Shown piece after piece: positions 18,421 to 22,473 of a stretch of DNA of 64,000 nt. Every line of letters starts with the position of its first letter. Within the stretch, counting starts at the first letter, position 1. The stretch is from Yuukianura sp. NJ FZ-2021. Lineage: Eukaryota. Made by a program: the position numbers and the translations under genes. Under the pieces are notes generated by a model. It ran no database searches. It was not told the origin of the DNA and saw only the letters and a program-made list of their open reading frames with translations. The stretch covers positions 8,928,001 to 8,992,000 of the forward strand of contig CM102283.1 of NCBI GenBank assembly GCA_046563655.1, written 5' to 3'.

Positions 18421-18799
18421 AATTTTGGTAACAAAAGTGAAGAACCGTTAGTTTTTGCATTGGCGGGAAGTTTGTCCGTGTTTTCTTTAGTTGAAATGTT
18501 TTGGCGGCTAACCATGGCGCATGCGCAATAATACAACACAAAGCAGCGTAGCAAAGTAAACTGAATCTGTCTTGTTCTCCACTCGGTCCGCACTCCCCTA
18601 TAAAACTCACTTTCCCCACAATTGTTTTCTCATTCGCATTTTGAACTTCAAGTTGTTCTGTTCTCGAAACACTTAAATCTCCAACTCATCATCCATCATG
18701 ACTGGCCGTGGTAAGGGAGGCAAGGGACTCGGAAAGGGGGGAGCCAAGCGACATCGGAAAGTCCTGCGAGACAACATCCAAGGCATCACGAAACCCGCC

Positions 18800-19149
18800 T
18801 GTTCAGTAACTTTCCAACTGAACTCAAGAAAAACTGGGCAAAAAGCAGACTCTGAAAAGTTCAGGAAAATCTGGGCTTTTAACCCTTTGTTTAATGAATG
18901 AAAGTTAATTGATGATGAACAATTAATTGTTAATGAGAGTGTAGGTCGAGTACTTAGGCATGGTACTGTGTGTGACAACGTGCTAAGACTGACTTATGCT
19001 AACAGAGTTGAACAGAACAAAAGCCCTAAACTAACTGCGTAGTAGAGGAGGGGCTAAGAGGCCTGAAATTGTGGGATTTTTGAATATAAAAACTGCGGGA
19101 GTTTTGAACTGAAAAACCTAGTGGAATTCACGTGGCAATTCCACAAACA
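18800..19149 (-). repeat. 3' LTR (350 bp)
   Basis: Direct repeat of 21875-22225; the only difference I could see is one G in a G-run. Confidence 0.96.
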
Positions 19150-19419
19150 CTCCCCGGCGTTGGTGGATTTTGGAAATCCACCAAGGAAAACTTGAAAACT
19201 AAAGTGGAAACGAAACGGGGTTGCTTGTGAAAATGCGCAGGCGTGAGAAACTTAAATGTTTAGAAAGGAGTGATGGAGAATAAATTTAAATTAAATCTAG
19301 ATTATAGAAAACTAAATTTAGAACTTAAATTCAACTCTACTCGAAATTTGAAAAGAAAAGTTAAGTCTAGTTGATGCTGTAGACTGATGCGGTGACGTCT
19401 TCATCGGTTGGCAGAGGAG

Positions 19420-21816
19420 CTAGTCGAGTGAAGGGACGTCGGTAGAGTTTGGTTGAGGTTCCATTTGAGGAGACTTGAGACTTCGAGAGGGGACGGGATG
19501 ACGAATCCTGAAGTGGAATGCCGACATCTGACGTCTGCTGCCTGCTCGAGTGTTATTGTTGTTGTCCAAGAAGGGGGAGAGAAAGCGGACGTTTCCCTTG
19601 ACCTGCTGCTTCTGGGCACAAAAGTTGATTTCTTCTGGAAAACAGGCTTTCTGGACCACCTTGACGAGTGCAAGTTGGGCCTGATCCAGTTTGTTTGAAG
19701 TGAGCGGTGCAGAGGTCGGCATCGCTGGGATTTGAGTTGAGGCGAATGTTGACCCTGGGCAAAGTGACACTGAAGTGGTCACGACTTTTCCAGCGTAGAG
19801 TTGAGGGGGTAGAACTCCTGCCTTGAGTGTTTGTGGCGAAGAGTGTTCCAGGTCCCCGTAGCATTGCAGAGATGCTTCCAAACTTTTGTCGTTTGGGTCA
19901 CAAGTGACGTGACACGAGGTGACGCTGGAAGGAGAGGTGTGATCTGGGCTTAACGGAGAAGTCCCAGTAAGGAACCAGCCAAAACGAGAGTCTTGTGCAA
20001 GTGGTGTCCCTGGCGCTCCAGTTCTGATTCCGGGCAGGAGTACTTGAGCAGTAGCTTCTGCACCGAGTAAAATGTCAATGGATGACGGAATGTTGAAGTC
20101 AGGGTCAGCCAGAGAAAGACCATCCAAGTGAGGAAATGACCCCTGACATTTGGAGCGTGGTAGGAGTCCAGTGAGGCGAGGCAAGACCAAGGCTTTCACT
20201 GGAAAAATAAAATTGTCATAGCGTGAGTGCAATTTGAAATTTACCGCACCACGAGTGGAGCCTCCAGATGAACCTCCGATTCCAGTCACACTGATGCATG
20301 ACTTCTGTCGCCTCAAGTTGAATCGGTCGACGAAAGCTTCTGAGACGAAGTTGGATTCGGAGCCGGGGTCCAGGAAGACACGACAAGGTTGACGTTCACC
20401 GTTCTGGTCAACGACTCGAGCGACGACAGTAGCCATCAGAACCACTTTGGTAGTGGGTGTCGTAGATGACGAGTGATGGGACTGGACGTGTTCGTCAGAC
20501 GAAGAGGTTGACTGCAATGCAGAGGGTGGTGACCTTGACGCTGAACTTGTTGTTGAATTTGAGTCTGAAGATGACTCAGATGATGAGCTCGAACTGCGAC
20601 GACGGACGTGAGCGTCAAAGTGGAGAAGGGTGTTGTGACGTTTTGAGCACTTGGAACACACCCCTTCACTTTTGCAGTCTCGAACTTGATGGTTTGAGCG
20701 CAAACAATTGATACAAATTTTCTTCTTGTGGGCGAAAGTAGTTCGGTCATGAGGACTCAATTTGAGAAAATCCGGACATTTGTAGATCCGGTGGGTCTGG
20801 TCATCACACTGTGGACATGCTGATTTGCCTTTGGTTTGCCCTGTAATCGTGTGATGAGCAGTGGATGATGAAGGGCTTGACTTCCGCTTTGATGACGGAG
20901 ATGATGGTGTTGGAGTGAGGGCATTGGCTCTTTTCTCCAAAAACTCCACGAACGGAGGAAGAGTAGGAAGTTCGTCGTTAGTGGTCAGTAACCACTGTCT
21001 TCTCGTCTCTGGATCAAGTTTGAGATGGGCCCAGTAGACGATGAAGATATCCCAATCGGTCACATTGACGTTGAGGATCTTGAGTGAACGGAGACATTGG
21101 TTGATTGTGTCGACCAATTTGAGAATCCCCTTGGATGTGTCTGGAACAGACTGAACAGAGAAAAGTTTAGTTAAATGAGAAAAGATGATTTCTCGTTTCT
21201 TGTTGAAACGTTTCTCAACCAATTCCCATGCTTCAGCGAAACTGAGATTGTTGAGTGGGAATGAAGAAGCGATGGACGCAGCTTCACCAGTCAGCGAGTT
21301 CTTGAGATAAACGAGCTTTTGAGCACCGGAAATTCTGGGATTATCGATGACTGCAGCCTGGAACAGATCCGAAAAGTTCTGCCATTCGGTGTAATCGCCG
21401 TTGAAAGTCGGTGGTTTGGTTTTCTCTAACTTAAACTCAGAATCAAAGTTAGAGTGATGTTGAATTCTTGGAGGATCCGGGTGATCCTCGTTTGGTTTAC
21501 GAATCGAATCACGAACAGCAAAGAGTGTGAATTGTACCTGTTCTAGCAGATCTTCACACTCGATAAGTGTATCGTCTATGTCGTCCAATGATTGGGAGGA
21601 AGTACTGGCACAGATGAGATGACGTTTCCAGTAATTGAACTCCGTTTTGATTTCACTAAGTCGAGTCTCCTTAACGGTGACTTCAGGGACAGTGGTCGGT
21701 TTCCATGTTACGGAGTCCAAAGACGTCTGGAGGCGAACGATCGTCTTCCTAACATGACCGAGTCCAGCTGTTGCAGAACTGAAGCTCACTACGTCGGAGG
21801 ATGGAGTGGAGGCCAT
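19420..21816 (-). CDS. BEL/Pao Gag-protease polyprotein fused in frame to a short pre-integrase remnant (798 aa)
   Basis: DUF1759-like PPTFNGDYTEWQNFSDLF...KLVYLKNSLTGEA; Zn knuckles CPQC..H....C, CINCL...H....C, CSKC...HNTLLH; aspartic protease FLDPGSESNFVS...IDILLGA; tail VQKACFPEEI...LSPFLD...RHP. Confidence 0.92.
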   Translation of the reverse strand: MASTPSSDVVSFSSATAGLGHVRKTIVRLQTSLDSVTWKPTTVPEVTVKETRLSEIKTEFNYWKRHLICASTSSQSLDDIDDTLIECEDLLEQVQFTLFAVRDSIRKPNEDHPDPPRIQHHSNFDSEFKLEKTKPPTFNGDYTEWQNFSDLFQAAVIDNPRISGAQKLVYLKNSLTGEAASIASSFPLNNLSFAEAWELVEKRFNKKREIIFSHLTKLFSVQSVPDTSKGILKLVDTINQCLRSLKILNVNVTDWDIFIVYWAHLKLDPETRRQWLLTTNDELPTLPPFVEFLEKRANALTPTPSSPSSKRKSSPSSSTAHHTITGQTKGKSACPQCDDQTHRIYKCPDFLKLSPHDRTTFAHKKKICINCLRSNHQVRDCKSEGVCSKCSKRHNTLLHFDAHVRRRSSSSSSESSSDSNSTTSSASRSPPSALQSTSSSDEHVQSHHSSSTTPTTKVVLMATVVARVVDQNGERQPCRVFLDPGSESNFVSEAFVDRFNLRRQKSCISVTGIGGSSGGSTRGAVNFKLHSRYDNFIFPVKALVLPRLTGLLPRSKCQGSFPHLDGLSLADPDFNIPSSIDILLGAEATAQVLLPGIRTGAPGTPLAQDSRFGWFLTGTSPLSPDHTSPSSVTSCHVTCDPNDKSLEASLQCYGDLEHSSPQTLKAGVLPPQLYAGKVVTTSVSLCPGSTFASTQIPAMPTSAPLTSNKLDQAQLALVKVVQKACFPEEINFCAQKQQVKGNVRFLSPFLDNNNNTRAGSRRQMSAFHFRIRHPVPSRSLKSPQMEPQPNSTDVPSLD

Positions 21817-21874
21817 GTCACTGATAGAGAGTCACTGATTGATTAAAGTTAATTTTAGATTTCCTGAAAAATTA

Positions 21875-22225
21875 TGTTCAGTAACTTTCCAACTGAACTC
21901 AAGAAAAACTGGGCAAAAAGCAGACTCTGAAAAGTTCAGGAAAATCTGGGCTTTTAACCCTTTGTTTAATGAATGAAAGTTAATTGATGATGAACAATTA
22001 ATTGTTAATGAGAGTGTAGGTCGAGTACTTAGGCATGGTACTGTGTGTGACAACGTGCTAAGACTGACTTATGCTAACAGAGTTGAACAGAACAAAAGCC
22101 CTAAACTAACTGCGTAGTAGAGGGAGGGGCTAAGAGGCCTGAAATTGTGGGATTTTTGAATATAAAAACTGCGGGAGTTTTGAACTGAAAAACCTAGTGG
22201 AATTCACGTGGCAATTCCACAAACA
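21875..22225 (-). repeat. 5' LTR (351 bp)
   Basis: Direct repeat of 18800-19149; lies 58 bp upstream of the gag ATG on the minus strand. Confidence 0.96.
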
Positions 22226-22473
22226 CCGCCATTCGTCGTCTCGCTCGGCGTGGAGGTGTGAAGCGTATCTCTGGCCTCATCTACGAAGAGACACGAGGGG
22301 TACTTAAGGTCTTCCTGGAAAATGTCATCCGAGATGCTGTGACCTACACTGAACATGCCAAGAGGAAGACAGTCACTGCCATGGATGTCGTCTACGCTCT
22401 CAAACGACAAGGAAGAACCCTCTACGGATTCGGCGGCTAAACTAACATCATCTCATCAAAGCATTAAACCAAC

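Follow-up and report, generated by a model that had tools for sequence, protein, structure and literature searches.

A gag-protease-only BEL/Pao element inserted in a histone H4 gene of Yuukianura sp. NJ FZ-2021

Introduction

Elements of the Belpaoviridae are 4.2-10 kb in size and carry an 18-nt primer site for tRNA-Arg or tRNA-Gly (PMC8742986). In plants, non-autonomous LTR elements of the TR-GAG or GAG-PROT-only kind are, according to two reports, derived from Copia or Gypsy (PMC13570524, PMC8704663). Elements that prime themselves have been reported in Tf1/Sushi, and the same has been suggested for certain plant Copia elements (PMC6317226). Histone units linked to 5S genes are described for Artemia and Asellus (PMC3215682). 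We found no precedent in the open-access literature for an LTR element in H4. In Drosophila, the 297 element is reportedly inserted in the H3 TATA box of histone repeats.

Here we analyse a 64,000-nt stretch of contig CM102283.1 from Yuukianura sp. NJ FZ-2021 (assembly GCA_046563655.1), referred to below as the window. We propose, with a probability of roughly 0.8 for the whole including the life cycle, that a member of a non-autonomous BEL/Pao subfamily inserted recently, without histone targeting, and knocked out one of eight H4 genes, the other seven covering the loss. Leaving its priming step aside, we hold this explanation a shade more firmly still. The element is more unusual than its insertion in H4.

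Results and discussion

Structure of the disrupted histone unit

In the window, H3, H1, H4, H2A and H2B are each represented by one gene (Table 1). Downstream of the histone genes there is a 5S rRNA gene, as in the units of Artemia and Asellus (PMC3215682); in contrast to those, the units here are dispersed and variable in content, with no single tandem array as far as the assembly shows. An inverted repeat at 24020-24240 was considered as a MITE and rejected; it recurs upstream of other histone genes and was taken as promoter sequence.

Table 1. Features of the histone unit and of the element within it (window coordinates).
Feature	Position	Strand	Remarks
H3, intact	15595..16005	+	own stem-loop at 16028-16074
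H1, intact	16644..17435	+	own stem-loop at 17465-17510
Foldback element, MITE-like, 695 bp	17726..18420	n/a	dispersed family, distinct from the LTR insertion
H4 promoter motif and TATA box	18583..18605	+	kept in intact H4 paralogs
H4 5' half, 34 codons (MTGRGK...ITKPA)	18698..18799	+	ATG at 18698
TSD CCGCC, left	18795..18799	+
3' LTR, 350 nt, TG...CA	18800..19149	-	ATTAAA poly(A) signal 18890-18895; leader-complementary segment 18860-18872
Hairpin and purine-rich tract at the PPT position	19150..19184	-	kept in short and long copies
Integrase C-terminal tail remnant and 3' untranslated region	19151..19465	-
RNase H-integrase tether scrap	19491..19827	-	decaying; neutral evolution among short copies
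798-aa ORF: Gag (DUF1759), three Cys/His zinc-knuckle motifs, aspartic protease (LDPGS), pol scraps	19420..21816	-
Leader at the primer-binding-site position	21857..21874	-	T-run and 12 nt complementary to own LTR; without TGG
5' LTR, 351 nt	21875..22225	-	poly(A) signal 21965-21970; leader-complementary segment 21935-21947
TSD CCGCC, right	22226..22230	+
H4 3' half, 69 codons and stop	22231..22440	+	protein unaltered
H4 3' stem-loop and downstream element	22469..22514	+	Rfam Histone3, 37.2 bits
Foldback fragment	22660..22819	n/a	same family as 17726-18420
H2A, intact	23218..23592	+
H2B, intact	24332..24706	+
5S rRNA gene	24902..25020	+	closes the histone unit

The 3,426-bp element lies antisense to H4, directly after codon 34. 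CCGCC flanks both of its ends, and the H4 codons are contiguous across this target-site duplication (TSD). Read through into the LTR, the H4 5' half gives a 67-aa product with its stop at 18901. When compared with the four intact H4 genes of this contig, the two halves show 4-6 nucleotide differences, all at third codon positions and with one private site; the promoter motif (TCGGTCCGCACTC...TATAAAA), the stem-loop and the downstream element likewise match the intact paralogs. The LTRs, 350 and 351 nt long, have no substitutions between them and differ by one single-G indel. Junctions and TSD confirm, as assembled, the antisense BEL/Pao insertion put forward in the initial annotation, which was also right that the LTRs are one G apart, that the H4 halves, promoter and stem-loop are undecayed and that this H4 is the only one of its unit. 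A search of the assembly for a haplotype with an empty site returned five matches to the upstream flank, with only the window's own above 83%.

As is reportedly the case for 297 in Drosophila, an LTR element interrupts a single member of a redundant set of histone genes; unlike there, the histone family is small and dispersed (eight H4 matches) and the insertion lies in coding sequence.

The element belongs to a family with short and long copies

Repeat counts from our genome search are lower bounds. At least 22 LTR matches were found, 14 of which form seven paired elements, one is a solo LTR with a TSD and seven are partial. The surroundings of two partials (L038 and L070) gave only unrelated 3.4-3.6-kb direct repeats, and two 67% gag matches (L067 and L068) were dropped, with no LTR pair in the stretch examined. 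Short copies, at least four in number, are 3.35-3.43 kb long and dispersed; every one has a 5-bp TSD of its own and an ORF of 793-804 aa. At least three long copies measure 6.4 kb, two of them with a 1,793-aa ORF; the long protein of L035 contains Peptidase_A17, RVT_1 and integrase domains, with the order PR-RT-RH-IN in a single gag-pol frame. About residues 666-1231 and 1388-1746 of the long protein are missing from all four short copies, with shared breakpoints, and the window copy is without RT, RNase H and the integrase core. Its ORF matched the profiles DUF1759 (E 2e-30) and Asp_protease_2 (E 4e-4, below that profile's cut-off), and its protein is 80% identical to that of a long relative.

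LTR termini and the 3' hairpin/PPT match between short and long copies; the purine tract before the 3' LTR is short and G-rich and follows the conserved hairpin. The long copies nearest to the short ones are at a dS of 0.61-0.68, with LTRs about 77% identical. Nine gag-protease rows, all from this genome, were placed in a tree, in which the short copies group as a single clade (100/100). The short copies are mosaic, with 56 adjacent same-partition sites versus 31 in shuffles (0/10,000). The protein branch of the short lineage is long (0.17), which may reflect partly relaxed constraint.

In common with Belpaoviridae, the family has LTRs (0.35-0.40 kb, within the 0.2-1.2 kb range) with TG...CA ends, a 5-bp TSD, DUF1759, Peptidase_A17, a PPT before the 3' LTR and, in the long relatives, a PR-RT-RH-IN frame (PMC8742986). 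The window copy differs from that description in being 3.4 kb long and without RT, RNase H and integrase, and is a derivative rather than an autonomous member (PMC8742986). The BEL/Pao assignment rests on domains and structure, the tree being confined to rows of this genome. The family named in the initial annotation stands; what does not is the idea of an ordinary copy, since this is a non-autonomous gag-protease subfamily without a tRNA primer site.

The closest parallel in life style is found in plants. Like TR-GAG elements, the window copy has two LTRs and one ORF with Gag (here with protease) and no replication enzymes, and its genome holds several TSD-flanked copies (four, with shared breakpoints and four different TSDs) together with long relatives. 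It departs from them in its animal host, its BEL/Pao origin and the in-frame pol scraps that it keeps, and in that selection on gag-protease was measured here. Our searches of open-access text turned up no Gag-protease-only or self-priming BEL/Pao element, and PMC3118150 makes no mention of a primer, non-autonomous elements or histones. The 5-bp duplication at H4 is of the integrase type. We propose that the short element supplies Gag and protease itself and packages its RNA, and that RT and integrase would be borrowed from a long relative in a TR-GAG-like fashion, even though the long relatives are distant.

The leader pairs with the element's own LTR

Judged by TGG, the tRNA-Arg/Gly primer site of Belpaoviridae (PMC8742986) is absent from the window copy and its eight relatives: no tRNA-type site was found in any of the nine, and the first TGG lies 56-64 nt past the 5' LTR in every one. 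Each leader pairs with its own LTR just past the poly(A) signal, with compensatory changes, and leader and LTR have changed together, where a tRNA site would stay fixed. In the covariation table, whose seven rows amount to only three distinct leader types and leave out L065 and L066, 83 of the 84 cells of the 12-bp duplex are paired and 4/12 pairs are changed on both sides. The L065 duplex is shifted by one column, so L065 and L066 were scored by duplex folding.

In all five lineages, the pairing segment is the best site of the whole LTR and is situated 13-17 nt past the poly(A) signal. The leader of the short lineage folds at -13.1 kcal/mol with its own segment, versus -5.1 to -8.1 kcal/mol with those of the four long lineages; the L035 leader gave -11.5 with the L036 segment versus -11.4 with its own. 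In the shuffle test, two of five measures were not exceeded (230/500 and 255/500). The duplex is weak in absolute terms, with 41-136 of 105-230 internal 24-mers pairing with the LTR at least as strongly. Because duplex energy does not discriminate against internal 24-mers, our case rests on position and covariation, which together suggest that the leader-LTR pairing serves self-priming of reverse transcription.

The genomic duplex ends 4-6 nt past the LTR end, and no genomic partner was found for the invariant T-run of the leader. Only with an A tail does the duplex continue across the conserved T-run, to a point 3-4 nt short of the LTR end, at -13.2 to -16.0 kcal/mol. Minus-strand synthesis would then be primed by the element's own RNA: a 13-nt segment ending about 28-30 nt past the poly(A) signal, with an A tail of some five residues, would base-pair with the leader as far as that point. 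We regard this as the most likely primer for the minus strand, at a little short of even odds.

Alternatively, the duplex may mask the cleavage site of the 5' LTR against premature polyadenylation, with priming left to an unrecognised RNA, e.g. a tRNA fragment. Structures that occlude the 5' poly(A) site are known in retroviruses, and such a role fits both the constant distance of the paired segment from the poly(A) signal and the presence of the leader only after the 5' LTR. We consider it rather unlikely, since it leaves the primer unexplained: all nine elements are free of TGG over the first 55 nt past the 5' LTR, the leader covaries with the LTR where a tRNA site would be constant, and the T-run has no genomic partner.

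In Tf1, the RNA 5' end is cleaved to give the primer. Were priming of this type, the RNA would start just before the complementary segment, and its 5' end would fold onto the leader and be cut. The same covarying 12-bp duplex fits this mechanism as well, and a similar arrangement is described for Tf1/Sushi, with no tRNA primer site and a primer position complementary to some 11-12 nt of the element's own LTR (PMC6317226). The present elements differ from those in having BEL/Pao-type Pfam domains and no chromodomain reported, i.e., they are not Ty3/Gypsy chromoviruses, and in that their partner segment lies at the predicted poly(A) site, where the T-run would pair with the A tail and the primer may be the 3' end. 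As the segment sits after the poly(A) signal, and as the genomic duplex stops short of the point that the A tail reaches, we favour the 3' end as primer over the 5' end and judge the Tf1-type mechanism unlikely. If the duplex is the primer, a family for which tRNA priming is described would here start reverse transcription independently of tRNA, and might do so from the 3' end, unlike Tf1. The question can be put to the test in five lineages whose duplexes are naturally compensated.

Gag and protease are conserved while the pol scrap drifts

Across 655 codons, gag-protease dN/dS was 0.14-0.23 in all six pairs of short copies (p 7e-11 or smaller). Variable codons among short copies were synonymous versus nonsynonymous at 87:45 in gag-protease and 5:22 in the pol scrap (p 8e-6), and the same scrap gave 38:20 in the long copies (p 6e-5 against the short ones). 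Gag-protease of the short copies is therefore under purifying selection while their pol scrap drifts.

We asked whether the short copies could instead be dead deletion derivatives, their gag conservation inherited or refreshed from an autonomous sister outside the assembly. Their mosaic, recombinant makeup would allow for this, as would repeat counts that are lower bounds. Among the matches listed, no long copy is more than 83% identical to the short ones, while the changes confined to a single short copy are predominantly synonymous in each of the four (13:3, 17.5:8.5, 20:11 and 9.5:4.5) and all four short ORFs are open through protease. Furthermore, scrap dN is 0.21-0.30 between short and long copies versus 0.03-0.07 among long copies, and since the scrap has diverged so far, the pol deletions must be old. 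Together these points make dead derivatives quite improbable. These measurements are evidence that a BEL/Pao lineage in an animal can maintain itself while selection preserves only Gag and protease; such a life style has mainly been described for plant elements.

Taken jointly, the sequences would fit a BEL/Pao lineage that left tRNA priming and instead primes with its own RNA, by an oligo(A)-tailed 3' end, with the short copies as an old Gag-protease-only parasite that has a private primer/leader pair, depends for RT and integrase on relatives at about 20% divergence and, to judge from the H4 knockout, is still moving. We offer this combined scenario tentatively.

Insertion sites

One of ten target-duplicated sites lies in a histone gene, and all ten TSDs are different. 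With the window copy excluded, TSD G+C is 27/45 (p 0.003). The family's sites are merely GC-rich, and its copies share no one target sequence or gene. The initial annotation had raised a preference for histone genes, which this list of sites does not support. None of the nine other loci had a histone stem-loop, 5S gene or tRNA in the scanned flanks (about 1.5-3 kb beyond most elements); L069, a histone-flank stretch that served as the tenth source, likewise gave no histone stem-loop, 5S or tRNA match.

Targeting of histone genes or loci would explain why one in ten sites falls in H4 coding sequence, which makes up 2.5e-5 of the genome and is an unlikely target a priori, and on contig C3 a long copy and an H4 gene are indeed only some 26 kb apart. 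We nevertheless consider it very improbable: beyond the nine loci and ten distinct TSDs, the same target word is unoccupied in all seven other H4 genes, the window was chosen for its H4 insertion, and redundant genes tolerate insertions. A split H4 created by misassembly is scarcely credible, since, although the one-G LTR difference lies within a G-rich run and is possibly a consensus error, the TSD is perfect with H4 codons continuous across it, the substitution-free window LTRs have at least four substitutions against every other copy, and the upstream flank is single-copy in the assembly.

Age and consequences of the insertion

Zero substitutions in 350 nt place LTR-LTR divergence at up to 0.86% (95%), which corresponds roughly, at a typical arthropod rate, to an age of up to a million generations or more. 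A young insertion, as initially suggested, is supported within this loose bound. So is the suggestion that H4 is supplied from other loci: of eight H4 matches in the genome, seven are intact and encode an identical protein, four of these within 140 kb. The broken H4 is probably harmless. With seven H4 genes left and no sign of targeting, the knockout matters little by itself, and serves as a handy dated marker for recent activity of the element. Nor is H4 the scarce histone partner, as canonical H3 genes number just four identical ones and one at 98%.

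The inserted element and the H4 gene

The window contains a single histone unit, ordered H3-H1-H4-H2A-H2B-5S on the plus strand with a stem-loop accompanying each histone gene, and its H4 is therefore the only one of the cluster, as the initial annotation had it. This H4 is interrupted after codon 34 by an antisense element with the target duplication CCGCC on both flanks, beyond which the reading resumes in frame; site, orientation and duplication had been described correctly to the base. The LTRs of the element indeed differ by one G, which may be a consensus error, and by no substitution. 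The H4 halves, promoter and stem-loop proved as undecayed as claimed: against its four near paralogs the gene shows 4-6 nt differences, confined to third positions and private at one site, and promoter and 3' signals line up with those of the paralogs. Read-through from the broken start gives a predicted 67-aa product with 34 H4 residues and no histone fold, and we infer from this that the copy is null.

Coordinates of features in the window
Feature	Position	Strand	Remarks
H4, 5' half	18698-18799	+	34 codons from start
Inserted element	LTRs 18800-19149 and 21875-22225	-	3,426 bp; 798-aa ORF on minus strand
H4 stop	22440	+	
Broken H4 through its stem-loop	18698-22514	+	
AATAAA inside element	19279 and 20206	+	
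H1	16644-17435	+	intact
Inverted motif	24020-24240		duplicated
5S rRNA gene	24902-25020	+	after H2B
Foldback element	17726-18420		695 bp
Same-family foldback fragment	22660-22819		
ORF	13704-14777		357 aa; just upstream of histone unit; no Pfam match
Tandem array	56046-59926		about 4 degenerate units, roughly 1.0-1.1 kb each, 62-88% alike

Misassembly at the insertion is unlikely, because the two LTRs match each other and are at least 4 substitutions from every other copy, and the upstream flank is single-copy in the assembly. With no substitution across 350 nt, LTR divergence is at most 0.86% (95%). This fits the very recent event proposed initially, but the bound is loose: at an assumed arthropod rate (the histone sequences tentatively suggest an arthropod host), ages of up to about a million generations or more fit within it. 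Overall, the initial observation stood while its interpretation was partly supported, and we favor, with a probability of about 0.8, a non-autonomous, untargeted and young insertion with H4 redundancy.

The H4 promoter, still intact, faces the element in the direction opposite to gag, the stem-loop persists on the far side, and plus-strand AATAAA motifs lie inside the element; judging from this arrangement, the broken gene could yield antisense RNA against the element family. The foldback element and fragment lie on opposite sides of H4 and belong to a dispersed family (122 matches from 40 of 139 candidates scored, both strands counted).

H4 redundancy and target choice

A search of the 98.7-Mb assembly for H4 gave eight matches from eight candidates. 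The seven other genes encode the identical 103-aa protein without interruption, four on the window's contig (one ~139 kb upstream, three ~133-138 kb downstream) and three on another, which upholds the suggestion that H4 is supplied from other loci. Canonical H3 is present as four identical copies and one at 98%, among 16 matches, so H4 genes are still more numerous (eight, counting the broken one, against four identical H3 genes); the counts are to be read as minima, and collapse of tandem copies is possible.

A preference of the LTR family for histone genes was not borne out. The comparison took in ten sites flanked by 5-bp duplications, those of four short copies, five long ones and a solo LTR. 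All ten duplicated words differed, and no histone stem-loop, tRNA or 5S gene turned up in the 9.9 kb fetched for the nine other loci. Leaving out the window copy, the words were GC-rich (27 of 45 bases G+C, against flanks near 39%; p 0.003), so a GC-rich H4 exon may plausibly have been hit by accident, and in so redundant a gene family the hit would be tolerated. As an event, the insertion into H4 is nothing out of the ordinary. One long copy lies ~26 kb from an H4 gene, which we take as chance.

A short lineage retaining Gag and protease

Pfam matched DUF1759 and, weakly, an aspartyl protease in the 798-aa ORF, with no match to RT or integrase. The 22 matches of the LTR search stem from four short elements (3.35-3.43 kb, with LTRs 94-100% alike), three long ones of 6.4 kb (LTRs about 77%), one solo LTR and seven matches that are partial; the internal region led to a further two long elements, which are more distant. 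Among the long copies, L035 codes for a protein of 1,793 aa with Peptidase_A17, a weak RVT_1, Integrase_H2C2 and DUF5641, and in another (L034) the frame stops at 1,598 aa. The four short copies share the loss of two blocks, ~aa 666-1231 (RT, RNase H) and 1388-1746 (integrase), yet retain an open frame of 793-804 aa. These copies group as a single clade (100/100). Their sequences are mosaics from recombination, of the kind that co-packaged RNAs should give, although gene conversion may also be the source. Two near-identical stretches on contig C1 (L067 and L068, at about 244 kb and 273 kb) match gag at 67%, lie beside 62-nt and 488-nt tandem repeats and look like a segmental duplication carrying a BEL/Pao remnant.

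In gag-protease, dN/dS among short copies was 0.14-0.23 in all six pairs (655 codons), and changes private to single copies were mostly synonymous. The leftover RNase H-integrase tether behaved differently: its variable codons were 5:22 synonymous to replacement, against 87:45 in gag-protease (p 8e-6) and 38:20 in the corresponding part of long copies (p 6e-5). One short copy lacks 87 nt of it, and the C-termini finish in different frames. Scrap dN was 0.21-0.30 between short and long copies but 0.03-0.07 among long copies; the deletions are therefore old. Together with purifying selection on gag-protease, this argues that the short lineage has long needed its own Gag and protease. In this it resembles the TR-GAG and GAG/PROT-only families of plants (PMC13570524, PMC8704663). 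RT and integrase would be borrowed from long copies, with which the short ones have their termini and 3' hairpin/PPT in common, but even the closest long copies are at dS 0.61-0.68.

Pairing between the primer position and the LTR

Belpaoviridae have an 18-nt primer site for tRNA-Arg or tRNA-Gly (ICTV profile, PMC8742986). A tRNA-type TGG near the 5' LTR was absent from all nine elements, the first TGG lying 56-64 nt past it. The leader at this position instead consists of a T-run and then ~12 nt that complement a segment in the LTR of the same element; that segment starts 13-17 nt after ATTAAA or AATAAA. Across seven aligned copies 83 of 84 cells were paired (19-60% in slid controls), with 4 of 12 pairs changed on both sides. 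In all five lineages, none of the 317-367 other 14-mers in the LTR suited the leader as well as this segment did, and cross-lineage pairing was weaker, except for the long copy L035 with L036. With an A tail after the segment, the duplex takes in the T-run as well and stops 3-4 nt from the end of the LTR, where a primer 3' end should sit.

Reverse transcription might thus be primed by the A-tailed 3' end of the element's own RNA, a tentative reading to which we give slightly less than even odds. Against it, the duplex is worth no more than -9 to -13 kcal/mol, the LTR pairs equally strongly with many internal 24-mers, shuffles left two of five measures unexceeded, and the five lineages are related. 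By analogy with Tf1 (PMC6317226), priming could instead come from the 5' end; the same duplex might otherwise mask the 5' poly(A) site. The element itself appears to be new. It derives from BEL/Pao, its Gag and protease are under selection, and the primer position in its lineage pairs with the element's own RNA. Searches of open-access main texts turned up no description of BEL/Pao elements with only Gag and protease under selection or with a self-pairing primer position.

Other histone loci

A 5S gene follows H2B in six of the seven histone units seen, 99-100% identical (the window, two in L041 and one each in L042, L043 and L044; none in L040). Histone-5S linkage is reported in Artemia and Asellus (PMC3215682). 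L039 (G000:C1:9079000-9088900) and L040 form a rearranged locus, H4-H3-H1-H4-H4-H2A-H2B, and L043 and L044 read H1-H4-H2A-H2B with no H3 within the fetched stretch. H1, seen in the window and in L042, L043 and L044, falls into two classes, C1 copies ~97% identical and divergent C3 copies at 54-64% over the globular part. Between the histone loci of C3, at G000:C3:703003-706300, sits a group of divergent H3-like genes with identities of 98%, 81% and 71%. The inverted motif, with a GAGTAAAACTTTGTCAAAT-like core, also stands upstream of H1 and H2A in the window, recurs upstream of H2B and H2A at all histone loci, and is probably a histone promoter element.
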